The translations under genes and the position numbers were made by a program. Positions 2,997 through 62,131 of a DNA stretch of 64,000 bases are shown here, one piece after another. Each line of letters starts with the position of its first letter. The first letter of the stretch is position 1. The DNA comes from Eledone cirrhosa (lineage: Eukaryota): assembly GCA_964016885.1 (NCBI GenBank), contig OZ024740.1, positions 178,436,001 to 178,500,000 on the forward strand, given 5' to 3'. The notes under the pieces are model-generated. The model was not told where the DNA came from. It did no database searches and saw nothing but the letters and a program-made list of their open reading frames with translations.

Positions 2997-3524
2997 ATGT
3001 GTGTATGTATGTGTATTATATATATATATATAATTATATACAAAGATATTACATATTTAATATCATTTTACTCCAGGAACTTGTTGAGTGCTCTAAATCA
3101 GTTATAAATATTTATATTTTTATTTATATTTGTCGTATTTACAACCCTTTGAATACTGCCTCCACTTTTTTATATATATTTTTATTTATGTGAATGTATG
3201 TATGTGCGTGCGTATGTATGTGTACATATGCGTTGTGTGTATGTATGTATATTTTTCTATATAAGTAATTATTTATATATATATGTGTGTATGTGGTTGT
3301 ATGTATTTTTTCTCATGTATATGTGTGTGTGAGTGTATTTTTTAATATATGTATATACACCTTCATTTGTATATATGTACCTATACGTGTGGTTGAGAGT
3401 ATATGCGTGCGTACGAGTGTGTATGCACGTGAGTATGTATATGTGTGTATATGTTGTGTGTGTATATATATGTATATACATATGTATGTTTATATGTATA
3501 TATGTATATATATGTATATATATA

Positions 3525-4506
3525 TATCAACTAGAAATAGATTGACATATATATATATATAAAATAAACATATGAAACAATCTCAGGAAATAATTTGTAA
3601 AGTGTGTAAGCACACATAGCGAGGTAGGTAACTAATTAAAGTTTAACTAGAACTTCAAATATAGATACCCTTTAAAATGATTAATCTCCTTTGTAAATAT
3701 TTCTTTAAGTAAGAAATATATTTCACCTATTAATCCGTAAATCACAGCAGTTAAATTCTTGGATGTTCACCAAAGGAGAAGAAGATAACCATCTACGTTT
3801 ACAAAGCAAATGTGTGCTTACATTATTTACATATTATTCCCTGTGATTGTTTCATATGTTTATTTTATATATATAAATATGTCAATCTATTTCTAGTTGA
3901 TATGTAATGCTCGGATCTAATCTTTGAGCTTATTCTACGGTGGATATGGCGCATGTCTCTCAGACATGATAACCCTTAATTTTAATTTTGGATATATATA
4001 CGGCCCATTGATTGTTGAGCTAATTCAATTTAATAGGCTCTGCTGCTATATCTGGCTGTCGATGGTCCTATTCACGCCACTGGGATGACGTTGTGCAATG
4101 TGTGTATTTTTTTTAAAAATGCAACACGTGGTTCGAGTCATTCACAGATTTGCATTTGCTTTGTAAACGTAGATGGTTATCTTCTTCTCCTTTGGTGAAC
4201 ATCCAAGAATTTAACTGCTGTGATTTACGGATTAATAGGTGAAATATATTTCTTACTTAAAGAAATATATACAAAGGAGATTAATCATTTTAAAAAGGTA
4301 TCTATATTTGAAGTTTTAGTTAAACTTTAATTAGTTACCTACCTAGCTATGTGTGCTTACATTCGTTATAAATTATTCCCTGTGATTGTTTCATATGTTT
4401 ATTTTATATATATATATATATATGTCAATCTATTTCTAGTTGATATGTAATGCTCGGATCTAATCTTTGAGCTTATTCTACGGTGGATATGGGCAAATAA
4501 TTATCT

Positions 4507-6754: not shown

Positions 6755-7140
6755 TTTTCCATTTATCGTTTTCGGTGTGCCCGGCCGACTGAACTCACTC
6801 GATATGCAAATTAGGCTGCTCAGCCGTTAATCTGCATAAGGAAAGTATATACTTTCTGACGTTCAAGCATCTGGCAGGAAGGTATACGATGCTGACGATA
6901 GCTAATAAGCTTGAAACTAGTACATCGTTCCTGTGTCAGTGTCGAACAAAAAGGCGACGATGGTTGCCTGAACACTGTACGGCGTAATTCGGGCTGTTTG
7001 TTTACAAACAAAGCGAACATTATAATAAATGTTCGGTAAACCCATACGTACATATATATATATATGCATGTATGTATATATATATATACATACTACTGTA
7101 CGTCTGTATACATATATGAATGTACGTGTACATACATACT
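6755..7140 (+). mobile_element. Retrozyme X (~430-bp non-coding unit with canonical HHR)
   Basis: Homologous to 19900-20420 (-) and the tandem dimer at 31405-32258. Confidence 0.8.
6875..6933 (+). ncRNA. Type I hammerhead ribozyme
   Basis: CAGGA-aggtat-ACGATG CTGACGA T AGCT aata AGCT T GAA ACTAGT A CATCGT TCCTG; GUA triplet, palindromic stem III. Confidence 0.88.
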
Positions 7141-9640: not shown

Positions 9641-9922
9641 ATATATATTGTTTATACTTTGGGAGGGTCATGTTGCCAATAAGAAAAACACGCACCAAGT
9701 TGCTTTCACTTCAATTTATTATATATTTATAAATTTATAAATTTACAAATCTACAAACTTATAAATTTCTGGTTGGTTGGTTGGTTCCACAACCAGATAG
9801 TTGTTTATATATAGTCATAGTCCTTTCGTCACACACTCTGTGACCTCTTCAGTGACTGGGGATTCCTTTCTTTGTTTCTGTGCCTTTCCTTTCTTCTGTC
9901 CTACGCCATTTTGTTTCTGTGT

Positions 9923-11220
9923 GTTCAAATTTAATGGAAAAACATATGCCCAAGAGGAAGGAGCAGCCATTGGTGTTAGCATTGCAGGCGACATAGCTAA
10001 CTTATTCATGGTATGGTGGGACAGTAGACTTAAACTTAAACTTAAAGAACAATTAGAAGACAGCTTAACCCTGATAATGTACTCCCGCTACGTAGATGAT
10101 ATAAACATCGTAGTTAAGACACCCCCACTAGAGAACAGTCAGGAACTAGAGAAAAACACAATGGAAAGCATCCAGCAAAATAGCAAACTCCATCCACCAC
10201 AGCATTAGAGTCACTATAGACTACCCAAGTAGACACCCCAACCATCGATTACCTGTACTAGACACAGAGCTCTGGTTAGATACCATTAACAACCAAAAAC
10301 AAATCCTCCATTCCCATTATGCCAAACCCATGACTTCCAAACATCTGATCCACCGAAACTCGGCCATTTCGGACCATACCGAAATCAACATACTGATTGC
10401 GGATTTGGTACGGGTGATGAGAAATGTGTCCCGCATATGCAACCCCGAAGAACTAGAGAGACACATACAACACTTCATCCACCGTATGCAGTTCTCTGGC
10501 TACAATCAGAGAGATAGAATCAGAGTGTATAAAGGAGCCAGAACCAAATGGGAAAAAATGGTAAATAATGACATAAATGGGACCTGCCCCTTGTATAGGA
10601 GCAAATTTGGGAATAGAATAGAAAGAACTAGGAACAAGGCCAATAAAATAAACTCATGGTATGATAGCAATAAATACCAGAGTGTAATGTTCATCAATAC
10701 AACCCCTAGAGGCGAACTAGCCTACAAATTTAGAAGGGCCCTAAATAAACATAAACTCAATATTAAGATAGTAGAAAGACCAGGTACCTCCGTAAAAACA
10801 CTTATTAGCAAGACATACCCGTTCCAAAGACCCTCATGTATAGATAAGAAATGTATAACCTGTAAAATAAGCCACCATATTAACTGTATAACTAGAAATG
10901 TAGTGTATAGCATAAGATGTACTGATGGATAATGTAGAAACAAAAATATAGTGTACATAGGTGAGACAGCTCGTAGTATAGGGGAACGGATAAATGAACA
11001 CTGGCGAGACCTTCAAGATAATAAAGAATCATCTGTACTCTACCAACATGCTAAGATAGAACACAAGGGTAAATTAGAGAACATAGAAATAAAAATAGAA
11101 TCCACACACAGAAAAGATGCAATGTTTAGGCAAATTACAGAGGCAGTAAGCATAAAAGAATTACAACCAAAATTAAATAGAAAATATGAGTGGAACAGCA
11201 ACATCACAACTTACAATTAA
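9923..11220 (+). pseudogene. PLE RT/GIY-YIG endonuclease ORF, disrupted
   Basis: Frameshift near 10177 and a premature TAA at 10930 relative to the 62687-63964 copy. Confidence 0.88.
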
Positions 11221-11424
11221 GGACAGAATGAAAACACACACACACATAGAACAAACAACCAACCAACAACATGTAAATAAATAAACAAATAGATAAATGA
11301 ACACAAACACATACAGACACTCGGATGTGGCGCATGCGCAAACTGAGCACACACCACACACACAGAAACAAAATGGCGTAGGACAGAAGAAAGGAAAGGC
11401 ACAGAAACAAAGAAAGGAATCCCC

Positions 11425-11469
11425 AGTCACTGAAGAGGTCACAGAGTGTGTGACGAAAGGACTATGACT
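11425..11469 (+). ncRNA. Minimal type I hammerhead in the Naiad-like 3' UTR
   Basis: AGTCA CTGAAGA g GTCACA gagtg TGTGAC GAA AG ga CT A TGACT. Copies at 9813-9857(-), 40700-40744(-), 41795-41838(+), ~44027-44070(-), 45287-45331(+), 62345-62389(-). Confidence 0.78.
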
Positions 11470-11711
11470 ATATATAAACAACTATCTGGTTGTGGAACCA
11501 ACCAACCAACCAGAAATTTATAAGTTTGTAGATTTGTAAATTTATAAATTTATAAATATATAATAAATTGAAGTGAAAGCAACTGGTGCGTGTTTTTCTT
11601 ATTGGCAACATGACCCTCCCAAAGTATAACAATATCGGTTTCAACACACGATTTCAGATAAAGAATCTTGCTAAACAAATTCAGAAACGAAATATATATA
11701 TATATATATAT

Positions 11712-13692
11712 GTAGGAGGTGAGTTTTATTGTAGTACAATAAAGCAATGCAGATATCGGATAAGAAGCACTCTACAGTTTGTAGGACTGGAGTATACATA
11801 ATATAAGATCAAAAGATAGTTAAAGGAGTTCCATGTATTTTATTATGCGCATTTCAAAAACAAACATCATCATGCAATAATATTTGTGTTTTCATCAGAT
11901 AAAACAGGAGAACATGATATGAAGGCTAAAAAACACTTGTGGATAGTGCAGTTTTAAATCAACATATGAAAAGTGGTTTTAGATTGATGTGTGATATTGG
12001 GAAAAATATTTTATTTAGAGAGGGGGGGGGGGTGGAAAGGATGAAAAAGGGGAGGAGATGAGAGGGAGAGATGGGTGATAGAGAGAAAGAGATAGTTTTT
12101 ATAACTGAGAGGAGATATATTGTTTTACATAGAGAGTTTGAAAACCGTTGGAAGATAATGTATAAATTAAAGGAATTTGAAAATTAACGAAGGGAATTTA
12201 TGTATGAAGATAGAGAGAAGAAATAATAATTGTGGATGAATATTCTAACGTCAAAAAAAGGGTATGTTGATAAGTATTGTGGCAATTTCAAAATTAACGA
12301 AGAGAAAAATTATTAAGGTTTGTGTGTAGAAGGATTTGAGAAAAATAATGTGAAGTTAAAGTTTGTATATTGGAGGAATTGATAATATATGCGAATAAGG
12401 AGTTAATATGTATTAAGAATGAGTTCGTTGATGGGGAGAAAAAAATAATAAATTAAGGATGAAATTGAGATTAAAAAGATTTATGATAGAGAGAAAAAAA
12501 AAATGATTGCGGATGAATATTCTAACGTCAAAAAACAGATGCATATGTTATGAAGGATTTTACAAGGTGAAGATAGAATGAGGGTAATGAGTAAACAAGT
12601 ATTATAGAGTGTATAATGCCCTTTAAAGTATGGTAGGAAGATGGGTATATTTTAAAGAGGTGTATGTATATGTGCCTTTGAGAAAAGATTCTAAATTGAT
12701 AAAGAATTGAATATTAACTGTATACTTTGTGAAAAGTTCTATGGAATTTATGCAGGCAGATAGAAAACAAATCTGTACGTCTATTTATTATAGAATCTAG
12801 GTTAGAGATAATGGTAAATTTTTCATTTAGGCAGAGATTACAGATTTTAGATAGAGAGCTGTTCAAGTATGAGGATGCAGAAGAAACCTTCTTCCAAAAG
12901 ATGGTATATTTAATGTTTTTGTCGTTTAAGGACCATATGAGTTCTGAGAGAGCAGTGTTGGTTCTTTTAAGTTCTTCGTTAATTTTGAAATTGCCACAAT
13001 ACTTATCAACATACCCTTTTTTTGACGTTAGAATATTCATCCACAATTATTATTTCTTCTCTCTATCTTCATACATAAATTCCCTTCGTTAATTTTCAAA
13101 TTCCTTTAATTTATACATTATCTTCCAACGGTTCTCAACCTCTCTATGTTAAACAATATATCTTTCTCTCAGTTATAAAAACTATCTCTTTCTCTCTATC
13201 ACCCATCTCTCCCTCTCCACCTTCACTCTCATCTCCTCCCCCTTTTTTTCATCCTTTCCACCCCCCTCCCTAAATAAAATGCTTTTTCCTCGCACATATC
13301 CTCCTTTCGTTAATTTTCAAATTTTTTTAATTTATACATTATCTTCCAACGGTTTTCAACCTCTCTATGTAAAACAATATATCTCCTCTCAGTTATAAAA
13401 ACTATCTCTTTCTCTCTATCACCCATCTCTCCCTCTCATCTCCTCCTCTTTTTCATCCTTTCCACCCCCCCTCTCTAAATAAAATATTTTTCCCAATATC
13501 ACACATCAATCTAAAACCACTTTTCATATGTTGATTTAAAACTGCACTATCCACAAGTGTTTTTTAGCCTTCATGTCATGTTCTCCTGTTTTATCTGATG
13601 AAAACACAAATATTATTGCATGATGATGTTTGTTTTTGAAATGCGCATAATAAAATACATGGAACTCCTTTAACCATCTTTTGATCTTATAT
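11712..13692. mobile_element. PLE family 2: head-to-head inverted pair of 3' ends (GIY-YIG C-terminus at ~12714-12975 on -)
   Basis: TALSELIWSL..KICNLCLNEKFTI..IINRRTDLFSICLH; arms 11795-12300 and 12978-13690 are reverse complements; homologous to 36272-39990. Confidence 0.85.
13588..13656 (+). ncRNA. Type I hammerhead, palindromic stem III ATGCGCAT
   Basis: GTTTTAT CTGATGA [stem II] GAA ATGCGCAT A ATAAAAT. Copies at 11837-11905(-), 39887-39957(+), 60695-60765(-), 60804-60874(+). Confidence 0.85.
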
Positions 13693-19252: not shown

Positions 19253-19512
19253 TTATTAGAAGAGCATAAAGCTTGTATGCTAGACGAACTACTAATCATA
19301 ATTCACTTGCCCATTTCAATAAATAAATATAAAAACAGTACAGAATAATATCTTAGTTTTGGAAAATGGCTTCAGATATATCCTCTATGTTTCTATTTCT
19401 ATTTCTCTTTCACACACACACAAACACATATATATATACATATATATATATAAATATATATAAATATATATACATATATATACATATACATATATATATA
19501 TAAATATATATA

Positions 19513-19878
19513 TAACGTGATATTCCTTGTTCGATCGTTATACACAAAGCTTATATTTTTAAGCAGACTGTATTTTGATTTAGGTGTCACAGGAACTCTA
19601 CATCGGATTTTAACAGCAATTCCGGGAGTCCAGGTCTGGTTATCACTTATTTTTTATCATTTATTTTGTTTTGACCTGTTTAGCTTGATTTGGTTTTTGG
19701 CTTGGGTGGTTAATGCTTTCTTGACCACCTTTTCAGTTTTGTATGGCTTCTTAACACATTGTTTAGCTCTGGTTTTTAACTATTGAGCACTTTGCCAGTA
19801 TCATTTCTGATTTTTTGCGTTTCGCTTCGCTTTTCCTGCCCGCCGAAAATGCGATTCTCGCTGAATCTTTATTTGTAT
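19513..19878. repeat. Unclassified dispersed repeat Y
   Basis: Homologous to 32258-32428, 32678-33030, 34022-34243 and, diverged on the opposite strand, 35688-36270. Confidence 0.7.
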
Positions 19879-19899
19879 ATATAAATATATATACATACA

Positions 19900-20420
19900 T
19901 AAATGGAATAGAATCAAACGAAATTTCATTTCTCACACTTAGTACGGCACTTACTTAAATGTAAGTATGTATGTATACGTACATACATATATGTATACAG
20001 ACGTACAGTAGCATGTATATATATATATATATATACATACAGGCACACCTATATATATGCACGTATCAGTTTACCGAACATTTATTATAATGTTCGCTTT
20101 GTTCGTTTGTAAACAAACGAACAGCCTGATTTACGCCGTACAGTGTTTAGGCAACCACGTCACCTTTTTGTTCAACACTGACACAGGAATGATGTACTAG
20201 TTTCAAGCTTGTTAGCTATCGTCAGCACCGTATACCTTTCTGCCAGATGGTTGAACGTCCGAAAGTTTATACTTTCCTTATGAAAATTAACGGCTGAGCA
20301 GCCTAATTTGCATATCGAGTGAGTTCAGTCGGCCAGGCGCACCGAAAACGATAAATGGAATAGAATGAAACGAAATTTCATTTCTCACTCTTAGGGCGGC
20401 ACTTACTTAAATGTAAGTAT
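19900..20420 (-). mobile_element. Retrozyme X, more than one unit (HHR at ~20184-20242)
   Basis: Terminal redundancy 19901-19975/20353-20425; CTGACGA..GAAACTAGTA on the minus strand. Confidence 0.8.
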
Positions 20421-20481
20421 GTATGTATCGAAACGGTTTGAGCTCTGCCGTCGGGGTCATATATTTTCCCATATACAGTAT

Positions 20482-21785: not shown

Positions 21786-21818
<33 letters not shown>

Positions 21819-21821
<3 letters not shown>

Positions 21822-22492
21822 TAATCAATGTTTAGCAAATAAGAAAAAGTTTTTAAATAAATTTTAAAAGGTTCACTGTACCTGCTGTAATTACCCTTAC
21901 CGTACGGTTTCAAGTCCAAAAATAAATGGATAATCCATGCGGATATCCATTGAAAAAGAAGACTCGCGTCAGAGGGTTCTTTTCACTCGGAGAATATAAA
22001 ATTCCCGAGTTCAAATCACGAACTGGCGCTATTCAAAATTGTTCCCGAGATGAGAGTGAATGATATAGAAGCAATTCTGTCCAGTGCCGTGTGCAAAGAT
22101 AGAAGGCAGAGGCGGATAGATCAATCCACTGCCACTAGAAATAGCAGAAGTTAAAACGACCAAAATGTTATCTCTACCAGGGGAGGTTAATAATAATAAA
22201 GTATGTATCCCTAGATGCAAAATACATATAGGGACACATGTATTATCCAACCGTATGCCAATGTGGTTCTATGGCAGGTTAATAAATTAACGAGCCAGAA
22301 CATATATAATCAAGGTTTAGCAAATAAGAAAAAGTTTTAAAATAAATTTTAAAAAGTTCATTGTACTTGCTGTAATTACCCTTACCGTACGGTTTCAAGT
22401 CTCAAAATAAATGGATAATCCATGCGGATATCCATTGGCATACGGTTGGATAATACATATGTATTTTGCATGTAGGGATACATACTTTATAT
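21819..22492 (-). mobile_element. Retrozyme-like element D: 485-bp terminally redundant unit plus short inverted arm (22433-22490)
   Basis: Direct repeat 21830-21952/22315-22436; arm is the reverse complement of 22197-22263; TA flanks. Confidence 0.72.
21893..21977 (-). ncRNA. Type I hammerhead with extended stem II (A9->C)
   Basis: ACCCT CTGACGC GAGTC..hairpin..GACTT GAA ACCGTACGGT A AGGGT. Confidence 0.72.
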
Positions 22493-22609
22493 ATATAAGC
22501 AAAGAGATATTATATTTGTTGGTAATTCCACAAATATATTTATAACAGATTCTAAGCACTCGTTAAGGACCGATACCTAGGTATGTCACTATTTATAAAA
22601 CAAATTTTG

Positions 22610-22734: not shown

Positions 22735-23950
22735 GTCTGTGCAGTATACTTCGTAAGAAAAGCTTTTTAGCCCAATTTGCAGAACGCTTAATTTAAGGGA
22801 GGTCTATACAAAATTCAATTAAATGCACATGTTCATCAATCGAATACGTGCGTTTCGCTGTGGTATTATCTCCGCAGTGCGTCTGTTTTACAACTTTGAA
22901 ATGTATATTGACAAGGTTTGAATTCTACTAGAGAGTTCTTTTGGAAGAGGAGAGGTTTTGTGGTGTTCGTTTGAATGTTATATAAGTTGGTAAATATTTA
23001 TTTAGGCTTTAGGTAAAATAGGAAGAAGTAATTTAGAATCGGGGAACGTTTTATGTAGGCTGGAAAGATATAGCGAGGTATTTACCTAAAAGGTTTCTTG
23101 GGTGCTAGATAGATGTTATAGAGGTTAGAACATTAATTGAGGAGTCATCTTTGTCTTATTTAGTGTGTGAGAAAGCTTCTACAGGGGTGTACATTTTACT
23201 ATAACCAGTGGGAATAAGCACGGAGTGCGAGGTTGTGGCTGTTCAGTGATATTCGGGGTTCTTCAAATTATGTGGGATGTATTTCAACGCATGGAGGCAA
23301 ATGTTGAAAAAATTGGATCTCTTATTAAGGCATGTTATCGTGGCATGCAACCATCTTAAGATGGTCTATCATTATCGTCGATCGTTCCACAATTTACGTA
23401 TTCGTCCTGTTTAGGTAAGAACTTAATTTTCCAAGGATATTTTATTTAATGGAGAAGTCCGCGCCTGCATCATTGATGGACCTGACGTGACATGCTAGCT
23501 CCATACCTGTTTGCCTAAATGTCATCTCATAGTTGAGGAAGCGGCAATTGAAGTGGTCCTCACACATAACCACATGATCTAATATCGGGCTGCTGATTCG
23601 GTTGGATGGAAGTTACCTCAGCTTCATAATCGATCGCGAGTGTGTTACACTGCTGATCCAGAGGGCATGATTCCGGCTTTCTACAAGAGCATCCCGGTGC
23701 GGGAGCGTTTTGTGTTTGTTGGTGATCTGCTCTTTCATGATTTTCTCACAGGGGTAGCCATTTTCCCTGTACATGTATATCGTTTAAACATTGGTCTAGC
23801 GGTACCCATCTTTTTCCTAGAAATAGATATGTAAAGGTATTTAATTATAGAATATATAAATGTTATAAGAACTCCCAAGTTATCCCAGCAAAAGTAATTC
23901 TTTAGACATTGGATACATAACACAATCTGGAAAAAACTCCGGAGAATCTT
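22735..23950 (-). mobile_element. Decayed PLE (GIY-YIG region + 3' UTR with degenerate HHR at ~22838-22895)
   Basis: Minus strand gives GCSCRKPESCPLDQQCNTLAIDYEAEVT and NKRSNFFNICLH. Confidence 0.65.
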
Positions 23951-29503: not shown

Positions 29504-29539
29504 ATATACACGGGTGTGTATGATTGTGTATAGAAGATT

Positions 29540-30957
29540 ATATTAATAAGAGGAATTCCAACTTTGTCTGATTTACTCGTTTTATTTACAATGCTTTAAA
29601 ATTTATAATGGTATTATAATGAAATAGTATGATAGAATATCAAATGTTAAGTGTTAATTGAACAAGTACTTTCATGCTTTCTCAATCTTCATGTTCATAA
29701 TGTGTGGTGACAGTCAAGTTTGCAATTTTCAACTGTAATGAGATGGGTAAATTTTGTACCTTATATGCAGTGAAAAGTGGCTCCAAAATGCTAAATCTTG
29801 CAAACTGTATTTCGACCAATCGGTGTGTAGTTTCACTGAATTACTAAAGCTGATTGGTTTAAGCATCACGGTTGGTTGAGCATGTCTAACGAGCAATAAT
29901 TGATCCTATCCAAAGCATCAATTGTTTTGCTATTTTTAGAAATGATGAAAATAGCATTTTCTAGTAAGCATCACCATCAACATCACTTTTATTATTATTA
30001 TTATTATTATTGTTGTAGTTGTTGTTGTTAGTGGTCGTAGTCGACATGGTCGTAGTCATAGTGATAGTAGAAGTAATACCCCTAAGCGTTATTATTGTTC
30101 ATTTAGCTTGGGTTTGAATTTATCAATAAAATTCTTTTCTTTGATTTTTCTCTTGATTTCACTTGGGCTGTGTAATTTATAGTATGGGAATATTATAAAT
30201 ATTCCCTGACCACATGTTGCTAGATGGTTACTTAGGGGTATCTGACGGACATTTGGGTCTCTGATTTGCTGACGTCAGATACCCCTAAGTAACCATCTAG
30301 CAACATGTGGTCAGGGAATATTTATAATATTTCCATTCTACAAATTACACAGCCCAAGTGAAATCAAGAGAAAAATCAAAGAAAAGAATTTTATTGATAA
30401 ATTCAAACCCAAGCTAAATGAACAATAATAACACTTAGGGGTATTACTTCTACTATGACTATGGCTACGACCATGTCGACTACGACCACTAACAACAAAA
30501 ACAACAATAATAATAATAATAATAATAAAAGTGATGTTGATGGTGATGATTACTAGAAAATGCTATTTTCATCATTTCTAAAAATAGCAAAACAATTGAT
30601 GCTCTGGAAAGGATCAATTATTGTTCGTTAGACATGCTCAACCAACCGTGACGCTTAAACCAATCGGCTTTAGTAATTCAGTGAAACTACACACCGATTG
30701 GTTGAAATACAGTGTGCAAGATTTAGCAATCTGGAGCCACTTTTCACTGTATATAAGGTACAAAATTTACCCATCTCATTACAGTTGAAAATTGCAAACT
30801 TGACTGTCACCACACATTATGAACCTGAAGATTGCGAAAGCATGAAAGTACTTGTTCAATTAACACTTAACATTTAATATTCTATCTTACTATTTCATTA
30901 TAATACCATTATAAATTTTAAAGGATTGTAAATAAAACAAAGTTAGAATTCCTCTTA

Positions 30958-30962
<5 letters not shown>
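29540..30962. mobile_element. PLE family G: ~700-bp near-perfect inverted repeat of a GIY-YIG C-terminus + 3' UTR
   Basis: 30276-30428 (+) translates QIPLSNHLATCGQGIFIIFPFYKLHSPSEIKRKIKEKNFIDKFKPKLNEQ*; spacer ~30248-30272. Confidence 0.82.
30820..30858 (+). ncRNA. Minimal hammerhead (39 nt)
   Basis: TGAAC CTGAAGA T TGC gaaa GCA T GAA AGTACT T GTTCA; mutated copy at ~29659-29697 (-). Confidence 0.75.
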
Positions 30963-31000
<38 letters not shown>

Positions 31001-31404
31001 AGAAAGAAGAGTGACATGGTTTGCTATAGAATAAGGACTTTATTCCATTGCTGACAATTGTTTCTCTGAACTGGTAGGTCTAGAGATCGCTACCCGCCTA
31101 TTTTTGCGCCAATCGATCACCAATACTTTGTTATAACCAGTCAATTCATCAGGGAATGCGTGAATGAAGGAAATACACAGGCATGGCTTCTATATATAGT
31201 AGTGGCATTAAATCAGAACAGTAATAACAATACTAACAATACTAAAAATACTCGAATAAATTATCTAGACCGTAAATAGTTAAAATAATCACAACATCAA
31301 TCTAAGTAAGACATAGAGTATACTGACGACTTTAGCATGTAAAACGAGCTGATACGAAGCAGATGTATGAAATTGATATGTAAAAGCTGTCATTATATAT
31401 AGTG

Positions 31405-32258
31405 TACGTATACATACTTATATTTAAGTAAGAGCCGTACTAAGAGTGAGAAATGAAATTTCGTTTCATTTTGCCCGTTTAGCGTTTTCGGTGCGTTCGG
31501 CCGATTAACTCACTCGATATACAAATTAGGCTGCTCAGCCGTTAATATACATAAGGAAAGTATATACTTTCATACGTTCAATCATCTGTCAGGAAGGTAT
31601 ACGTTGCTGACGATAGGTAATAAGCTTGAAACTAGTAGAGTGTTCCTTTGTCAGTATTGAACAAATGAGCAACGATGGTTGCTAGTCACTGTACGGCTTA
31701 ATTCGGGATGTTTGTTTACAAACACACCGAGCATTATAATAAATGTTCGGTGAATCCAGACGTACATATATATGTGTGCATGTATGTATATATATATACA
31801 TACTACTGTACGTCTGTATACATATATGTATGTATGTATACATACTTATATTTAAGTAACAGCCGTACTAAGAGTGAGAAATGAAATTTCGTTTTATTTT
31901 TTCCGTTTATCGTTTTCGGTGCGCCCGGCCGATTAACCCACTCTATATGCAAGTTAGGCTGCTCATCCATTAATATGCATAAGGAAAGTATATACTTTCA
32001 GACGTTCAATCATCTGGCAGGAAGGTATACGTTGCTGAAGATAGCTAATAAACTTCAAACTAGTACAGCGTTCCTTTGTCAGTGTTGAACAAATGAGCAA
32101 CGATGGTTGCTAGACACTCTACAGCTTAATTCGGGATGTTTGTTTACAAACACACCGAGCATTATAATAAATGTTCGGTGAATCCATACGTGCATATATA
32201 TATGTGTGCATGTATGTATATATATATACATACTATTGTACGTCTGTATACATATATG
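31405..32258 (+). mobile_element. Retrozyme X tandem dimer (period 428 bp; HHRs at ~31590-31648 and ~32018-32075, partly decayed)
   Basis: TAAGAGTGAGAAATG at 31441 and 31869. Confidence 0.82.
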
Positions 32259-32748
32259 TGTTTTTGGCTTAGGTGGTTAATGCCTTCTTGACTGCCTTCT
32301 CACATTGTATCGCGTTTATAGCTCTGTTTTTTTAGCCATTGGAACGCTTGCCAGCATGACTCTGAATTTGCGTTACGTTTCGCTTTTTCTACCCGCCGAA
32401 ATGCGATTCTCGGTGAATTTATATTTGTATTAATCTCCCGAGTCTTACAATTAACCTGTTAATAATTCTATTGACAGATTAATTGCATAAGTTATATTTT
32501 AAAAACTACCTGGTTGAGTGCTTATTCGATTTGTGCTATTTATTTAATTTTTTGCATGATTTACACATACTGAATTCATTTGCCAAATTCTGGGTTTTTC
32601 CCCTTTTGAGTTACACATGTGCTTTTACAAAACACTTCGTCACCCACAATACTGGTCCAGAACAAAATAGCTGTTGATAACGTGATATTCCTCGTTCGAT
32701 GATTATTACAAAAGCTTATGGTTTTAAGCAGACAGTATTATTGATTTA

Positions 32749-32960
32749 GCTGTGGATTGGCCGTATCGGTAGAGGGCGGTGGATTGGCAGTATCGGTAGA
32801 GGGTCGGACGCCATGCTTTCCAGCATAGTTACGTCCCTTTACGATCTGGGTTCAAATCCCGCCGAGGTTGACTTTGCCTTTCATCCTTACGGGGTCGATA
32901 AAATAAAGTACCAGTAATGCACTGGATAATTGCTGGCCTTGTGCCTAAAGTAGAAACAAT
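32749..32960 (+). mobile_element. tRNA-derived SINE with duplicated head; TSD ATTAYTGATTTAGCTGT
   Basis: Head GTGGATTGGCMGTATCGGTAGAGG occurs twice; inserted into repeat Y. Confidence 0.88.
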
Positions 32961-33044
32961 TACTGATTTAGCTGTCACACAATCCGTAGGTTTTGATTTT
33001 ACCATCGATTCCAAGGGTCCAGGTTAGTTATATATATATATATA

Positions 33045-34024
<980 letters not shown>

Positions 34025-34238
34025 TTATATGATTTATTTTGTCGGATCTGTTTAGATTGACTTGTTCTTTTGGCTTAGGTGGTTAATGCCTTCTTGACCG
34101 CCTTCTCAGTTTGTATGGCGTTTATAACCTATGTTTATAGCTCTGGTATTTTAGCCATTGGAGCGCTTACCAGCATGACTCTGAATTTGCGTTACGTTTC
34201 GCTTTTTCTACCCGCCGGAATGCGATTCTCGCTGAATT

Positions 34239-34430
<192 letters not shown>

Positions 34431-36271: not shown

Positions 36272-39200
36272 CATCAGATAAAATAGGGATACATGATATG
36301 AAGCTTAAAAAACACTTGTGAATAGTGAAGTTTTAAATCAACATATGAAAAATAATTTAAGATTGATGTATGAGATTGGGAAAAAGTGAGGGGGGTTGGA
36401 AAAGGTAAGGAAGAGGAGAAGATGAGAGTAAAGAATGGTGGGGGAGGAGTATAAGAAGGAAGGATGAGAGAGGAGGAGAGATGGGTGATAGAGAGAGAGA
36501 GATAGCCTTTACAATTGAGAAAAAATATATATTGTCCCACAGAGAGAAGTTAAAAAGCCGTTGGAAGATAATAGATAATTTAAAAGAATTTGAAATTAAA
36601 AGTTAATGAGGTTTATGCATGAAAAGAAAAAGCGATTAAGAATAATTTAAATTAAGGTTTGTATATTGAAGGGTTTAATAATATGTGCGAGGAAAAGAAA
36701 TTATTAATATGTATTATTAAAATTAAAATAATAATGTTATTAAGGATATAATGTGAAAAGAAGTAGAAGAATGAATGAGTTATGAATTTAGAGGAATTAG
36801 TTAGGGTTTAAGTTTGTTTTTATGTAATGTAATATGTGTGCGTAATATGTGTACGTAATTAGTTTGTTTAAAAATGAGCGCAGAAGGCAAAGAAGAAAAT
36901 AATCTTTAAGGAAGAAAATATCTAACATCAAAAAATATATATGTTTACGAAATATTTTCTAATGGTAATAATATAATATATTAAAAGAAATTAGTCGGGA
37001 TTTAAGTTTGTTTTTATGTATTGTAATATGTAAAAGTCAAACGAGCATGAAAGGATGAGATAAGGAATTTAAGGAAGAAAAATCTAACGTAAAAAAAAAT
37101 GTTTATGTTTACGAAGGATTATTAAAGGTAATTAAAAAAATAATAATAAGTACAGATTAGAGGTTAGAAATTAAAAGAAAAGAGGAAGAAAGGAAAGTGA
37201 TAAAGAGGAATGATATAGAACGAGTAACTTGTATTATATAATATATAATAAATAATATTGAAATAAGGTAGAAAGATGGGTATATTTTTAAAGGTTATAT
37301 AAGCCTTTGAGAAAAAGGATTTTAAACTAGTAAGGTATTAGATATTAGCTGTATACTTTATGGAATGTTATGTGGAATTTATGCAAGCAGAGAGGAAATA
37401 AATCCGTGCGTCTATTTATTATAGAATTAAAATTAGATATAATGGTAAATTTCTCAGCTGGGGAAATATTACATGTTCTGGATAGGGAGGCATTCAAGTA
37501 GGGAGAGGCAGAACAAACTTTTCTCCAAGAAAAGTTATAGTTAATATTTATGTCTTTCAAGGACCATATGAGTTCTGAGAGTGCCGTGTTAGTTCTTTTA
37601 AGTTGGTATATAAAAGACGAATTGTGATTATAAAATCTAGCTTTGAAGGAGGTGGAAGTGGTACCGAAATAAGCGAGGGAATAAAAATATCTTCGATGCT
37701 AACGCCAATTACTATAATAATGCGCTTTCTAAAGCCGGTTATCCTGATAAAATTAAATACAGTAAAGAACCCAATCCTAGAAGGTCTTACAGTAAAATAA
37801 TTAATTAGGATCATTCCAATAACTTAAATAAAAGACCTAGATACAAAAATATAATCTGGTATAATGCTCCTTTTTCTATTTCTATTAATAATAATATTCC
37901 TAAACTATTCTTTAGGGCCTTAGATAAATGCTTCCCTCCCTCACATATCTATAGTAAAATCTTTAACAAACATACAATAACATTTTCCTATTCCACTTCC
38001 TCCAACATCTCTAACATTATCTCTAAACACAACAATAAAATATTAAATATTAAATCACATCCTTCCAACACTGAGCGTCATAATAATAGCAGTAGTACTC
38101 CCGACGTCATTGTTAACTCTAGGCTAGATTCTGTAAATTCAAATACGACGTCAAACGTAACTTCGTTGAATGTTCATAATACCAATCTAAATCAGGAAAC
38201 TATTATTCCTATCGTAAATAACTTCTCCAATCCAATTCCTACTATAAATAACAATAGATCACTTGTTAATAACTCTGTTAATTTCTCTAATCGCAATTGT
38301 AATTGCCCTGTTAGAACTAAATGTCCTCTCAATAACCATTGTCTTGATAAAAAACTTAGTCTATGAATGTAAGGTTATAACTGATACCAATTCCTTTACC
38401 TATTTCGGTTCCAGCTTCACCTCTTTCAAAGCTAGATTTTATAATCACAATTCGTCTTTTAGATACCAACTTAAAAGAACTAACACGGCACTCTCAGAAC
38501 TCATATGGTCCTTGAAAGAGAAAAATATTAACTATAACATCTCTTGGAGAAAGGTTTGTTCTGCCTCTCCCTACTTGAATGCCTCCCTATCCAGAACATG
38601 TAATCTTTGCCTAGCTGAGAAATGTACCATTATATCTAATTTCAATTCTATAATAAATAGACGCACGGATTTATTTTCTCTCTGCTTGCATAAATCCCAC
38701 ATAACATTCCATAAAGTATAGAGCTAATATCTTTACTAGTTTAAAATCCTTTTTCTCAAAGGCTTATATATCTTTAAAAAATATACCCATCTTTCTACCT
38801 TATTTCAATATTATTTATTATATATTATATAATACAAGTTACTCATTCTATATCATTCCTCTTTATCACTTTCCTTTCTTCCTATTTTCTTTTTAATTTC
38901 TAACCTCTAATCTGTACTTTTTCTTCCTAACTACTTCACAATTCTTATTTTTACTCACCACAACATTATCCATTCTTCCATCTTTCCTTATATCATTGGC
39001 CATAAAAATTATTATTATATTTTTAATACATTATAGTATTACCTTTAATAGTCCTTCGTAAACATAAACATTTTTTTTTGACGTTAGATTTTTCTTCCTT
39101 AAATTCCTTATCTCATCCTTTCATGCTCGTTTGACTTTTACATATTACAATACATAAAAACAAACTTAATCCCTAACTAATTTCTTTTAATATATTATAT

Positions 39201-40490: not shown

Positions 40491-40549
<59 letters not shown>

Positions 40550-40556
<7 letters not shown>

Positions 40557-42044
40557 ATACTTTGGGAGGGTCATGTTGCCAATAAGAAACACACGCACCA
40601 GTGTTTCACTTCAATTTATTATAATAAATTTATAAATTTAGGAATTTATAAATTTCTGGTTGGTTGGTTGGTTCCACAACCAGATGGTTGTTTATATATT
40701 GTCAAAGTTCTTTCGTCACACATTCTGTGACTTCTTCAGTGACTGGGGATTCTTTTCTTTGTTTTTGTGCCTCTCCTTTGTTCTGTCCTACGCCATTTTG
40801 TTTCTGTGTGTGTGTTGTATGCTCAGTCTGCGCATGCGTCATATCCGGGTGTCTGTGTGTGTTTATATTCGTTTATTTATTTGTTCATTTACATGTTACC
40901 GGTTGGTTGTTTGTTCTATGTGCGTGTGTGTTTTCATTTTGTCCTTAATTGTAAGTTGTGATGTTGCTGTTCCACTAATATTTTCTATTTAATTTTGGTT
41001 GTAATTCTTTTATGTTTATTGCCTCTGTGATTTGTCTAAACATTGCGTCTTTTCTGTGTGTAGATTCTATTTTTATTTCTATGTACTCTAATTTACCCTT
41101 ATGTTCTATTTTAGCATGTTGGTAGAGTACAGATGATTCTTTACTATCTTGAAGGTCTCGCCAGTCTTCATTTATCCGTTCCCCTACACTACGAGCTGTC
41201 TCACCTATGTACACTATATTTTTGTCTCTACATTGTCCTTCAGTACATCTTATGCTATATACTACATTTCTAGTTTTACAGTTAATATGGGGGCTTATTT
41301 TACAGGGTATACATTTCTTATCTATACAGGGGAGTCTTTGAAAAGGGTATGTCTTGCTAATAAGTGTTTTTACGGAGGTACCTGGTCTTTCCACTATCTT
41401 AATATTGAGTTTATGTTTGTCTAGGGCCCTTCTAAATCTGTAAGCTAATTCACCTGTAGGGGTTGTATCGATGAACATTACACTCTGGTATTTATTGCTA
41501 TCATACCATGAGTTTATTCTATTAGCCTTATTCCTAGTTCTTTCTATTCTATTCCAAAATTTGCTCGGTTACTCTCGCCGATTCTGCTGAGGAGGTCCTC
41601 CGTGCTGTCACATACATTTCAATGATGGGGCGTATGATCAGGGAGAGGAAGTAGGACAGTCTGTAGTTACTAGCAATGTTAGCTCCACAGACTGGCCGTG
41701 TTGGTGGCGCAGACTGAGCACACAAACACACACAGAAAGAAAATGGCGTAGGACAGAACAAAGGAGAGGCACAAAAACAAAGAAAAGAATCCCCAGTCAC
41801 TGAAGAGGTCACAGAATGTGTGACGAAAGAACTTTGACAATATATAAACAAGCATCTGGTTTTGGAACCAACCAACCAACCAGAAATTTATAAATTCCTA
41901 AATTTATAAATTTATTATGATAAATTGAAGTGAAACACTGGTGCGTATGTTTCTTATTGGCAACATGACCCTCCCAAAGTATAACAATATCGGTTTCAAC
42001 ACACGTTTTCAGATAAAGAATCTTGCTAAACAAATTCAGAAACG

Positions 42045-42050
<6 letters not shown>
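40550..42050 (-). mobile_element. Naiad-like PLE: 3' part (40550-41563 -), internal N-terminal fragment (41565-41706 -), inverted arm (41707-42050 +)
   Basis: ORF 40975-41478 is the GIY-YIG domain; termini match the other copies. Confidence 0.9.
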
Positions 42051-43794: not shown

Positions 43795-45500
43795 TTTCGT
43801 TTCTGAATTTCTTTAGCAAGATTCTTTATCTGAAAACGTGTGTTGAAACCGATATTGTTATATATTTGGGAGGGTGATGTTGCCAATAAGAAACACACGC
43901 ACCAGTGCACTCCAATTTATTATAAATAAAAAAATCTTTCTAAAATTTTTTCAAAAGTTTTTTTCAATAAATTTATAAATTTCCGGTTGGTTGGTTGGTT
44001 CCACAACCGGATGGTTGTTCATATATTCTCAAAGTTCTTTCGTCACACATTCTGTGACCTCTCAGTGACTGGAATTTTTTTCTTTGTTTTGTGCCTCATC
44101 TTGTTTTTGTGTGTGTTGTGTGCTTAGTTTGCGCATGTGTTACATCCGGGTGTCTGTGTGTGTTTTATTTGTTTATTTATTTGTTTATTTACATGTTACA
44201 GGTTGGTTGCTTGTTCTATGTGTGTGTGTTTTCATTTTGCCCTTAATTGTAAGTTGTGATGTTGCTATTCCATTCATGTTTTCTATTTAATTTTGGTTGG
44301 AGTTCATTTATGTTTATTGCCTCTGTGATTTGTCTAAACATTGCGTCTTTTCTGTGTGTAAATTTGATTTTTATTTCTATGTTCTCTAATTTGCCCTTAT
44401 GTTCTAGTTTCGCATATTGGTGGAGTATTGATGACTCTTTTCTATCTTGAAACTCGCGCCAGTGTTCATTTCACCGTTCTCCTATACTACGAGCTGTCTC
44501 ACCTATGTACACTATATTCATATCTTTACATTCTCCTTCAGTACATCTTATGCTATATACTATGCTTCCAGTTTTTCAGTTAATATGGGGGCTTAGTTTA
44601 CTGATTATGCATTTTTATCTATACAGGGAGGTCTTTGAAAAGGGTATGTATTACTAATAAGTGTTTTTATGGAGCTACCTGATCTTTCTACTATCTTAAT
44701 ATTAAGTTTAAGTTTATCTAGGGCCCTTTTAAATTTGTAAGCTAATTCACCTCTAGGGGTTGTATTGATGAACATTACACTCTGGTATTTATTGCTATCA
44801 TACCATGAGCTCTGTGTTTAGCACAGGTACCTGTATTAGACACTGATCTCTGGTCAGAAACCATTAATAACAAAAAAAAATCCTCCATTCCCATTATGCC
44901 AAACCCATGACTTTCAAATATACTAAAATAGAACATAAGGGTAAATTAGAGAACATAGAAATAAAAATAGAAACACAGAAAAGACGCAATGTTTAGACAA
45001 ATCACAGAATCAATAAACATAAATGAACTCCAACCAAAATTAAATAGAAAACCTAAGTGGAACAGCAACATCACAACTTACAATTAAGGACAAAATGAAA
45101 ACACAAACGCACATAGAACAAACAACCAACCAGTAACATGTAAATAAACAAATAAATAAACGAATATAAACACACACAGACACCAGGATGTAACACATGC
45201 GCAAACTAAGCACACAACACACACACAAAAACAAGATGGCGTAGGACAGAACAAAGGAGAGGCACAAAAACAAAGAAAAGAATCCCCAGTCACTGAAGAG
45301 GTCACAGAAAGTTTGACGAAAGAACTTTGACAATATATGAACAACCGCCCGGTTGTGGAACCAACCGGAAATTTATAAATTTTTGAAAAGATTTTTTGAA
45401 TAAATTTTTTAGAAACATTTTTTAATTCATAATAACTTAGAGTGAAACGACTGGTGCGTGTGTTTCTTATTGGCAACATGACCCTCCCAAAGTATAACAA
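43793..45500. mobile_element. Naiad-like PLE head-to-head pair, more diverged
   Basis: 43793-44810 (-) and 44820-45500 (+) both end at family termini in TA. Confidence 0.88.
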
Positions 45501-46288
45501 TATATATATATATATTTATATATATATATGAACTTTAAATTACGTGTTTAGTCGAAAATCATTCGAAGAGGTAAAAATGTTTCTTGTATTTTTTTTTTTT
45601 TTAATTAATTCTGATGAATCAAGTCATTTGTTCATATAATTAATGAAGTAAAAATGAAATATCTTTTATGAAATATCTTTTATGAAATGGAAGAAACGCG
45701 CGCTAATTAATCTTATTTTCAATATCTTATATATATATTTATCACTTTCGTATTTTGGCTCATATATAAGTATACACAGACTGATGTGGATGCTTACGTT
45801 AATCTAAAATATAGGGAATGATAATTATACACACATATACACATATATATATATGCACATATGCAAATGCATATCAACGTGTATATACAGATACATATGT
45901 ATACGAATACATACAGATACACACACACACACACACGCCCATATACATATACACACACACACATATATATATATATCAGTTTCAGGAGATCCCGCTTAGG
46001 GTGAAAGCAGAAATGTATTGCTTAAATTTTTATTCTTTACTAATAATACATATTTGCTCAACAAATTTATATATACTTATATACGTATACATATACAACC
46101 CTTATCGAGTTCTCTCTGGATTTAGGTTCTTATTTTTATTATTACTATATATACACATACATTATTATTTTTAAAAATGTAGGAATAATAAAGCATGCAG
46201 AAAAGTCGGAAGACACAAACACAAGGACAATTCCCGCCCATCGGCTGTCTTTTGGGGACTATTATAGTTTCGGATCTTTTAATGCATG

Positions 46289-47229: not shown

Positions 47230-47710
47230 TATTTTATATAGAAATGACTACTATATGACTAGGGTCTTTTCATTCATATGAAATGGGAGTCGGGAAGGAG
47301 CTTCTGCATGATAATCAAAAGTGTAAACCCAGGGAAATTCCACAGCATTACAGTAATGAATCTATGGCTGAAAAACTGCATCCTTATCAGCAAAAGCCAT
47401 GCATAATAATGATGCCAGGAAGCTCCAATGTGCGAGTAATAAACTGAAATCAAACAAACCAGATATAATGATATGGGACAGAGAGAAGAAGGCACGCACA
47501 GCAGTAGATCTCATCTGTCCGGCAGATGTCAATAGAATGCTAAAGATCAGTGAAAAGTAGATTTATGCTGCAAAGATTTATGAGGAATCTGGATATATTA
47601 CTGAGAGTCTCATTACAAATCTTGAGTAGCTGAGCTTCATATCTAGAAAGAGCAGAGCTAGTTAGGAAGCTGCAAGTGCAGTCCAAAGAATATGTAAAAC
47701 GTTTAAAATA
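47230..47710 (+). mobile_element. RLE-type non-LTR (R4/Dong-like) endonuclease fragment
   Basis: SNKPDIMIWDREKKARTAVDLICPADVNRMLKISEK, a PD..D motif. Confidence 0.55.
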
Positions 47711-49066: not shown

Positions 49067-49140
49067 TATACATAACTAATAAGCTCTGTAACCTACATAG
49101 AGCACTCTTTTTTCCTGGACCTTTCCGACGGAATTACTTC

Positions 49141-59043: not shown

Positions 59044-59130
59044 AAAGTTCTATTTAAATAGTTGGGATGCAACAAGCAAATATTTTATAACTGATATAAA
59101 GCACTCAACAAATAATTGGAGTAAAAATAC

Positions 59131-59740: not shown

Positions 59741-60551
59741 TATATTATATTATATTTGGAGTTTAAACTCAAAAAGTCATTTACAATTAATTAGCTCAAA
59801 GAAAGAAGCATTTCTGAGCCGTGAAATATAAGGTAATATAAATTAATATATGAAAAACACATAAGTGTTTGTATTGCAAAAGACGAAGTTAGCTAGAATG
59901 AAATAAACTAATTAAAATAAATATAGTTTGTCTGTCTCGATATAAATCAATAAAAACAAACCTATATTGGCAAAATTGGCAGTGATTCCTGGACAAATTT
60001 AAATTTCAAAATCCAAACCTGCTCCATAGATGAATTTGAACTTCAAAACCTAAATATGTTTCGCAACGATGGTATAAAAAGTGAAATAATCAAATCTTCT
60101 GTGCTTATCAACAGGAATCCAGAAAAATTAGGACATTTCACCTCCAAAAAATTTTGTAGGACTGGTTCACAAGTACAAACGCACGAGGTACACAGCTCAC
60201 TAGCTATCTCATACTCACAGTGCTAGAAATAACAGCCGTTTATATGGGATTAAAAATTACCTCAACACGCAAGGAGCCGTAATATTATATTATATTTAGT
60301 GTTTTAAATTCAAAAGTTCATTTACGAATTAATTAGCTCAAAGAAAGAAGCATTTCTGAGCCGTGAAATACAAGTTAATATAAATTAATATATGAAAAAC
60401 ATATTGCCAATATAGGTTTGTTTTTATTGATTTATATCGAGATAGACAAACTATATTTATTTTAATTAGTTTATTTCATTCTAGCTAACTTCGTCTTTTA
60501 CAATACACACACTTATGTGTTTTTCATATATTAATTTATATTAACTTGTAT
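59741..60551 (-). mobile_element. Retrozyme-like element C: 542-bp terminally redundant unit (59741-60400) plus inverted arm (60404-60551)
   Basis: TTAGCTCAAAGAAAGAAG at 59791 and 60333; arm is the reverse complement of ~59828-59973. Confidence 0.75.
59984..60119 (-). ncRNA. Type I hammerhead, U3-A8 core variant with very long stem III
   Basis: GATTCCTG TTGATAA GCA..TGC GAA AC[long hairpin]GT C CAGGAATC; GUC triplet. Confidence 0.78.
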
Positions 60552-60568
60552 ATATATAAATATATAAT

Positions 60569-60912
60569 GTAGGAGGTGAGTTTTATTGTAGTACAATAAA
60601 GCAATGCAGATATCGGATAAGAAGCACTCTACAGTTTGTAGGACTGGAGTATACATAATATATAAGATCAAAAGATGGTTAAATGAGTTCCATGTATTTT
60701 ATTATGCGCATTTCAAAAACAAATATCATCATGCAATAACATTTGTGTTTTCATCAGATAAAATAGGAGGACATGATATGAAGGTTAAAAACACTTGTCC
60801 TCCTATTTTATCTGATGAAAACACAAATGTTATTGCATGATGATCTTTGTTTTTGAAATGCGCATAATAAAATACATGGAACTCATTTAACCATCTTTTG
60901 ATCTTATATATT
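60569..60912. mobile_element. PLE family 2 short head-to-head pair (two HHRs)
   Basis: 60657-60773 is the reverse complement of 60796-60912. Confidence 0.85.

Positions 60913-62127: not shown

Positions 62128-62131
<4 letters not shown>

Follow-up and report, generated by a model that had tools for sequence, protein, structure and literature searches.

The window analysed here, a 64-kb stretch of AT-rich, microsatellite-packed eukaryotic DNA, holds many copies of a tRNA-derived SINE that we take to be of octopus type, and self-BLAST shows that many insertions in it consist of an inverted piece beside a partial tandem. Several of these are ordinary Penelope-like elements (PLEs), with remnants of the reverse transcriptase (RT) or the GIY-YIG endonuclease and with type I hammerheads; hammerhead cores occur in families F and J and in other families of the window. 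Family F is a Hydra-clade PLE, with a CxCX5C linker, 38% identity to a protein carrying the RWK and DKT motifs, and scores of 94-102 bits against a Hydra profile built from 45 of the 883 homologues of that protein; P0001 carries all three Hydra motifs (RWK, DKT and CxCX5C). The F ORF has a long asparagine-rich insert before the endonuclease linker, as in rotifer Penelope ORFs (PMC3846280). Family S, in which a SINE and one of the elements described below (B) are nested, has no visible ORF or hammerhead core. A young Neptune-like family, a head-to-head palindrome of PLE 3' ends, a retrozyme-like repeat (R) and an old endonuclease remnant complete the picture (Table 1).

Table 1. Elements, hairpins and boxes in the 64-kb window
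Feature	Position	Strand	Remarks
Element A	3524-4495	+	Inverted 5'-truncated copy to ~3812, then partial tandem X-body-X'; monomer ~540 nt
Element B	33044-33897	-	Monomer 33044-33606 (-), inverted tailed copy 33607-33897 (+)
Element C	59742-60551	-	Inverted copy 60401-60551, partial tandem; monomer ~541 nt
Element D	21815-22495	-	Anatomy as in A-C; hairpins degenerate
Motif 1, exact matches	3909, 4452, 33808	+	
Motif 1, exact matches	59790-59819, 60332-60361	-	
A hairpin 1	3909-3933	+	GCUC/GAGC, UU bulge, G-U in upper stem, UUAU flank
A hairpin 1, second copy	4452-4476	+	In tail of 3' end
A hairpin 2	4003-4024	+	GCCC/GAGC, one mismatch, weak upper stem, UAAU flank
B hairpin 1	33808-33844	+	In tailed inverted copy; 7-bp upper stem; damaged twin starts 33577 (-)
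B hairpin 2	33462-33482	-	Basal stem only, UAAU flank
C hairpin 1	60332-60361	-	UAAU flank
C hairpin 1, tail copy	59790-59819	-	
C hairpin 2	60256-60277	-	UAAU flank; family form GCUC/GAGC
D hairpin 1	from 22295	-	Degenerate
D hairpin 2	22186-22171	-	Degenerate
F tail hairpin	11769-11793	-	ACUC/GAGU, UA bulge, GCU flank; opens tail of hammerhead-bearing family F
F tail hairpin, second copy	60626-60650	-	107 nt after hammerhead core
J hairpin	59103-59122	-	ACUC/GAGU, UU bulge; opens tail of hammerhead family J
Hairpin in J-like stub	3070-3089	+	Adjoins TA repeats
S hairpin	19766-19788	+	ACU flank
Hairpin in tail-only stub	49083-49103	+	Between microsatellites
A box	4043-4055	+	Ends GG, not AG
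B box	33432-33444	-	
C box	60223-60235	-	
D box	22135-22147	-	
Family S	32250-34240; 19500-19880		
Family F ORF	37900-38270		Asparagine-rich insert
Neptune-like PLE family	9652-11691; 40549-42046; 43796-45503; 62130-64000		425-aa ORF remnant with RT, cysteine linker, GIY-YIG; hammerhead
PLE palindrome	29539-30965		1.4 kb, near-perfect (93%); two head-to-head 3' ends of canonical PLE; GIY-YIG C-terminus; hammerhead at 30825
R repeat	6767-7049; 20059-20424; 31394-32189		Tandem unit ~430 nt, Hydra-type hammerhead
Endonuclease remnant	23400-23730	-	Decayed, Hydra-like (22.8 bits)

Results

Two motifs, described in a preliminary account as a longer motif 1 and a shorter motif 2 followed by a CTG..TCTRG box, were located in four elements, A-D, with monomers of 485-546 nt. 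All coordinates of the motifs and the box in that account were correct on re-examination, the four positions of the box being exact, and motif 1 lies well above its background frequency, with five exact matches where 100 dinucleotide shuffles give an expectation of 0.00. The core TTGAGSTWAT has ten matches in the window against 1.15 expected, two of which (681 and 63964) are incidental and lie within an RT ORF. A damaged motif 1 copy at 33577 (-) had been overlooked, and the motif 2 copy at 22167-22188, already regarded as weak, is indeed degenerate. The motifs are a real feature of this DNA.

Short elements without an ORF or a hammerhead

Elements A, B, C and D all show the insertion anatomy of PLEs in the self-BLAST, namely a partial tandem (pLTR) with an adjacent inverted 5'-truncated copy. 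Each has a tail at one end only, of about 45-110 nt, longer than the 30-40 nt described for PLE tails (PMC8557442), and the ends run into TA repeats, which flank A on both sides; between the tailed end of A and the repeat there are 14 other nt. Six-frame translation and the Hydra profile search found no ORF for RT and GIY-YIG in any of them, so that they are non-autonomous, and the four monomers contain no CTGANGR hammerhead core. They thus lack the type I hammerhead that Hydra-clade elements carry in the pLTR and non-LTR retrozymes in each tandem unit; nor do they show the A and B boxes, tRNA fold and freedom from internal T runs of tRNA-derived SINEs, and ARAGORN found no tRNA in them. BLAST gave no link to the SINE of the window apart from a 12-nt match in D. 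The motifs are not a known SINE fragment. Because the hammerhead is missing and no protein is encoded, we call A-D Hydra-type riders rather than members of that clade.

The four monomers align with each other essentially only at the motifs, the best match (E = 0.003) covering 41 nt at motif 2. Single common k-mers are only modestly significant: the best 13-mer common to A-C was reached in 3 of 100 shuffles and 3 of 100 real segments, the best 13-mer common to A-D in 1 of 100 and 9 of 100, and the best 10-mer common to A-C in 0 of 100 and 2 of 100, respectively. The strength of the case comes from the order and position of the motifs and from loci outside the window.

Family C was surveyed in public DNA contigs, of which 531, 565 and 508 in three runs of one sample matched the C monomer. 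It is very abundant, with a summed contig depth above 40,000 (which is not a copy number), and occurs in head-to-tail junctions; the junction from 60401 to 59863 was found in contigs of two of the three runs, with near-identical junctions in the third. No variant reaching at least 8% was present in motif 1 or in the stretch around the box (60200-60243), and variants were present in the loop of hairpin 2. The G at 60260 is private to the window copy; all covering contigs of the three runs read C, so that motif 2 of this family is GCUC..GAGC-UAAU, like motif 1. Among the loose contig ends listed, none had TA at the expected places. A CACGTG palindrome, possibly a transcription-factor site, lies 40-80 nt downstream of the box in A (~4123, +), B (~33385, -) and a C subfamily, in the last case at a loose end of the family C contigs (60199).

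One hairpin fold, used twice

With its UUU redrawn, motif 1 becomes an upper stem set on a 4-bp base (GCUC/GAGC), with two bulged nt on the 3' side. Motif 2, previously treated as a different motif, is a copy of the same fold, which can be written as RCUC, a variable paired upper stem, a 2-nt 3' bulge (UU, UA or UC) and GAGY; we refer to the two copies as hairpins 1 and 2. A G-U pair that had been assigned to B belongs to the copies at 3909 and 4452 in element A. Measured from hairpin to hairpin, the spacing is 94, 95, 84 and 109 nt, which corrects the earlier figure of about 80-100 nt. The tails of F and J open with this fold as well, with A-U replacing G-C at the base, and the window contains 11 strict hairpins, those of family S and of two stubs among them, against 0.93 in block shuffles (maximum 3). 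A relaxed scan detected no such hairpin in the Neptune-like tail (~55 nt; 11620-11691) and only weak candidates in K and L among the tails of families G, K and L; the R repeat has none despite its Hydra-type hammerhead.

Covariation was assessed on 26 hairpins, one per family and position, leaving out D, L087 (one of the outside loci described below), the damaged copy in B and repeat copies; a script counted the pairs, MAFFT alignments having lost the register of the 5' arm. The upper pairs, which take many forms yet still pair, were formed in 24, 21 and 22 of the 26 hairpins, far above the 14.9, 12.2 and 10.6 of shuffled columns, counts that related families inflate. Base pair 1 is G-C in 22 hairpins and A-U in 3, and six G-U pairs against two C-A mismatches favour the sense strand. 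When candidates from the window and the outside loci were collected by sequence only and pairing was scored later, at least three upper pairs were present in 19 of 24 RCU-flanked and 5 of 6 UWAU-flanked copies, compared with 1 of 27 others. In A-C the upper stem of hairpin 2 is poorly developed, the 5' arm of this hairpin is often paired with other sequence in minimum-energy folds, and the folding z-scores of the hairpin regions are unremarkable (-2.0 to +2.2).

An Rfam scan gave no match at the gathering threshold in the 64 kb, and at the level of E-values only unrelated matches in A, B and C (E 2.1-3.6). The three-part pattern of two motifs and box was absent from the viral and the metagenome contigs searched. 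Motif 1 alone gave 77 metagenome and 4 viral matches, which we attribute to chance given that none of these 81 had a box within 170 nt or a TA repeat; they later served as control sequence.

The hairpin in Hydra-clade elements outside the window

The hairpin descriptor was fixed before 12 Hydra-PLE loci (60 kb), fetched by profile from five prokaryote-labelled assemblies, were read. These loci (L082-L093) are intact animal Hydra-clade PLEs and presumably represent host contamination. Strict matches numbered 14 and fell in 8 of the 12 loci, where 1.03 would be expected; the control loci (281 kb) had 6. The match at L089:1415, counted among the 14, has no RCU flank and is likely to be incidental, and since five of the loci come from one assembly and have families in common, the counts overstate independence. 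The search by sequence only returned 18 RCU-flanked copies in 10 of the 12 loci; the sequence of L082 stops within the hammerhead, and the pair in L087 is a variant one, of which one hairpin has a compensated GCAC/GUGC base.

Over these loci and the window, hairpin 1 is located 72-107 nt after the hammerhead core and, where the tandem junction is present, hairpin 2 comes 62-68 nt after hairpin 1. In L083, L084, L089 and L091 the pair stands just ahead of the ORF, hairpin 2 starting 38-48 nt before the ATG, and L087 has it there in variant form. Judged by eye, the hairpin is also present in four of the six Hydra consensus sequences in file S7 of PMC8557442 (coral, two sea cucumber, and a copepod variant), twice before the ORF in Hydra-1_Ajap; in the Hydra-1_Obim and Hydra-1_Amil consensus sequences of that file it was not seen. 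No relatives of the F endonuclease or of the Hydra alignment were found in the viral contigs, and no autonomous element with the UAAU flank or the box came to light.

Insertion ends follow the hairpins

Insertion ends were mapped by comparing terminal with internal copies, each position being blurred by a few nt where TA repeats adjoin it. The untailed end lies 0-6 nt 5' of hairpin 1 in all 11 comparisons: about 5 nt in A, 2 in B, 6 in C, 6 in D, 0-5 in F and 4 in J (six of six window families), and 6, 5, 5, 5 and 6 nt in five of five comparisons from four families outside. The tailed end lies 2-8 nt 5' of hairpin 2 in seven of nine comparisons, at 8, 4 and 6 nt in B, C and D and at 4, 2, 5 and 8 nt in the outside loci, where the L091 value comes from within one element and the other three from cross-copy alignments of low score (26-38); the uninformative alignment of L087 was left out of the count. 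The exceptions are A, whose tailed end stops about 50 nt short of the position of hairpin 2, and S, where an intact hairpin 2 is missing from the tailed end and the box is absent. A TCTC-CC-GAGT remnant 3 nt after the tailed end of S may be a collapsed hairpin 2.

Tailed ends track hairpin 2 at a spacing of about 62 nt and at 84-109 nt alike, and the tail from hairpin 1 to the TA repeat measures 53-61 nt in the outside loci and about 78-110 nt in B-D. The position of the end follows the hairpin, not a fixed length. At L091:2880-2950 a full-length Hydra insertion starts at hairpin 1 itself, directly after a TA repeat, which may mark the 5' end of the RNA or an RT stop.

The box

Measured from the start of hairpin 2, the box of A-D lies at 38-42 nt and shows 0-3 mismatches. 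Five autonomous leaders contain nothing equivalent (5-7 mismatches); the box is restricted to the riders. A fifth match to its pattern, at 47643-47655 (-), has no surrounding element. This look-alike (47643-47670, -) is preceded by TTCCTAAC and may belong to the host, as a 3' splice site whose branch point is U12-like.

Two readings of the box seem about equally tenable to us, the first being our leading guess, and each falls short of an even chance. The box could be a 3' splice site and the UAAY after hairpin 2 its branch point, with an intron in the 5' leader that would be kept because splicing processes or stabilises the rider RNA. The branch point consensus is yUnAy, and a 5-mer of this type occurs 31-34 nt before the end of the box in all four elements; B, C and D have a YAG with no AG in between, elements with a box have UAAY where the flank is otherwise RCU, and the look-alike at 47643 resembles an ordinary 3' splice site. 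Leader introns have moreover been described in PLEs, in Penelope and Chlamys-3 (PMC8557442). However, in A the box ends in GG and an AG intervenes, leaving three of four elements that fit the geometry, hairpin 1 has the same flank with no box, no 5' splice site is conserved in position, and the 13-mer of the box is more specific than a pyrimidine tract.

Just as likely, the box might be a promoter or another protein-binding element, including an extra contact for the protein of a particular Hydra subfamily. Its fixed distance from hairpin 2 (38-42 nt), matching the place of the ATG in autonomous elements (38-48 nt), would suit such a site, as would the 12 nt after the box in D (22122-22133, -), which match the 5' start of the local tRNA-derived SINE, and a sequence in A near 4130, GGTTCGAGTCA, that we take to be B-box-like. 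The 12-nt sequence has five other matches in the window, all of them SINE copies. PLE promoters are internal (PMC8557442), which fits as well; on the other side, ARAGORN detects no tRNA, each of the four monomers has T runs of 5-8 at which Pol III would stop, and A and B boxes are inconsistent across A-D. For the first two of these reasons, Pol III transcription of whole monomers is unlikely.

Discussion

For a Poseidon PLE it has been shown that reverse transcription begins at two internal sites within a stem-loop, that these sites delimit the tail, and that the genomic ends fall on them; the RNA 3' of the start sites is required, the hammerhead need not cleave, and the protein has been modelled as a dimer (PMC11167929). 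Since the ends of Poseidon mark the starts of reverse transcription, the hairpin pair described here most likely serves the Hydra RT-endonuclease as a twin landing pad; that is, hairpins 1 and 2 are probably cis-acting RNA hairpins recognised by the RT-endonuclease of Hydra-clade PLEs. By this analogy the ends would equal RT starts in the Hydra clade too, and the protein would bind the hairpin as RNA. Each hairpin would anchor the RT-endonuclease, and cDNA synthesis would begin about 5 nt to its 5' side, in AU-rich sequence able to pair with a nicked (TA)n target. A start at hairpin 1 would give the untailed end and a start at hairpin 2 the tailed end, in which case the tail would hold hairpin 1 and its length would equal the hairpin spacing. 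A dimer would suit two pads, one per target strand. From the hairpin and target that they have in common with Hydra elements, we infer that A-D are non-autonomous elements mobilised in trans by a Hydra enzyme, having kept only the hairpin pair, with UAAU in place of the RCU flank, and a box of their own.

What this model draws on is directly observed: the fold, its covariation, the enrichment in Hydra loci, the fixed distance to both ends, and riders that have neither ORF nor hammerhead. Of the functions suggested in the preliminary description, an RT or protein recognition signal is the one that gains support, since both insertion ends have a hairpin immediately 3' of them, within the window as well as in the outside Hydra-PLE loci; an internal promoter could apply to the box only. 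Against the landing-pad model stand the two tailed-end misses (A and S), the weak hairpin 2 of the riders and the degenerate hairpins of D, the unremarkable folding energies, the R repeat and the Hydra-1_Obim and Hydra-1_Amil consensus sequences, in which no hairpin was seen, and the lack of an autonomous partner with UAAU; nor does the model explain the box.

Its main rival, which we consider unlikely, is that the hairpins act as DNA, in the cDNA or as extruded hairpins, where the endonuclease would recognise and resolve them and so trim both ends of an intermediate. A fixed distance to both ends fits this equally well, endonuclease-mediated resolution has been proposed for the tail (PMC8557442), and the Drosophila virilis endonuclease needed the tail to cleave plasmid DNA (PMC11167929). 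Yet the G-U (or G-T) wobbles and variable loop length fit a single strand, and RNA more readily, and the one full-length PLE assayed makes its ends by RT initiation (PMC11167929). It is more doubtful still that the motifs have no present function and are undecayed remains of a single Hydra leader from which A-D descend. The modest k-mer statistics and the degenerate state of hairpin 2 and of element D are what such common ancestry would leave; everything outside the motifs is unalignable, however, pairing has been kept through substitutions, the ends track the motifs despite differing spacing, and family C has no common variant in hairpin 1 or the box while having variants in the hairpin 2 loop. 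Least probable of all is the second ribozyme that had been envisaged, a new self-cleaving motif replacing the hammerhead in A-D. The riders do lack hammerhead cores, and for A, B and C a longer stem enclosing hairpin 2 and the box can be drawn, but the hairpin coexists with intact hammerheads, 72-107 nt downstream of them, in F, J and the outside loci, and therefore does not replace them. The longer stems also differ between families, Rfam gives no match, no HDV-type pseudoknot can be drawn, and by-eye attempts at pistol and SECIS folds were dropped, in agreement with the preliminary description, which had found no fit to HDV, pistol or SECIS.

Naiad as the partner of A-D is unsupported beyond a by-eye resemblance in octopus leaders. 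Three octopus Naiad consensus sequences (PMC8557442, file S5) show, by eye, GCTY..TTTGAGC with poor upper pairing just before the ORF, which may be a distant form of the hairpin. Three 9-mers from the ACU-flanked hairpin end have four matches in the Hydra file of the same supplement, against two in its far larger Naiad and Chlamys files.

Returning to the landing-pad model, it can be extended, with considerable speculation and little confidence on our part, into a two-pad code. A dimer would bind both hairpins and prime cDNA about 5 nt to the 5' side of each, one for each target strand, the spacing would set the tail length, and any RNA with the pair would be insertable into (TA)n. A-D would then be hidden, very abundant, ribozyme-free PLE parasites, whose monomer RNAs might be cut from tandem transcripts by the spliceosome, not a hammerhead, through the branch-point-like flank and the box. 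A GT occurs within 6 nt after the box in all four riders, as GTGAGT in C.

RNA structures bound by an RT that set where copying starts or stops, and that license parasites, occur as the 3' stem-loops of SINEs and LINEs, in the R2 3' UTR and as telomerase template-boundary elements. These are single and lie near the RNA 3' end or 5' of the template, unlike the two internal copies 3' of template starts in the present case. RT-binding RNA structures and the two-start origin of the PLE tail are already known. Like A-D, the Hydra-clade PLEs (Craig et al., 2021, PMC8557442) have (TA)n targets, a partial tandem with an inverted 5'-truncated copy, a tail at one end, and the same hairpin in tails and leaders; A-D differ in lacking the ORF and hammerhead, in the UAAU flank and the box, and in a hairpin spacing of 84-109 nt as opposed to 62-68 nt. 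The Poseidon PLE of Anolis (PAc; Frangieh et al., 2024, PMC11167929) is alike in that two internal RT start sites bound the tail, and in needing a stem-loop and the RNA 3' of the start but not the hammerhead in vitro. It has one AC-rich stem-loop inside the ORF, in a single element of another clade, whereas the hairpin reported here is a repeated, covarying leader hairpin 3' of each end that recurs across several phyla. Non-LTR retrozymes (bioRxiv 10.64898/2026.07.22.740005) are likewise short, non-coding, head-to-tail and PLE-dependent, but are defined by a type I hammerhead in each unit, which A-D lack, so that hammerhead-based searches would miss them. Non-autonomous Chlamys elements of green algae such as MRC1 (PMC8557442) are also ORF-less PLE riders with pLTRs, in a mostly hammerhead-free clade; these resemble the 3' end of their partner by sequence, whereas A-D, from a cephalopod-like genome, share only the fold.

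In the open literature searched, we found no description of a repeated, covarying hairpin that predicts both ends. The words 'hairpin', 'stem-loop' and 'stem loop' do not occur in the main text of PMC8557442, and look-ups by term in PMC8557442, PMC4209133, PMC8967140, PMC3846280 and bioRxiv 10.64898/2026.07.22.740005 gave no account of the hairpin pair.

The RTs of PLEs are the closest relatives of telomerase RT, and how they choose their RNA and why they leave a tail are questions addressed by one in vitro study. A hairpin of about 25 nt, present in Hydra-clade elements of several animal groups, predicts both insertion ends within a few nt, which turns the choice of start site in PLEs into a simple question of mutagenesis and suggests a minimal cargo tag. 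It also provides a handle by which to recognise repeats with neither ORF nor hammerhead that annotation based on proteins and ribozymes leaves unclassified. Short protein-less parasites in this octopus-like genome seem to have borrowed the hairpin pair in order to spread.
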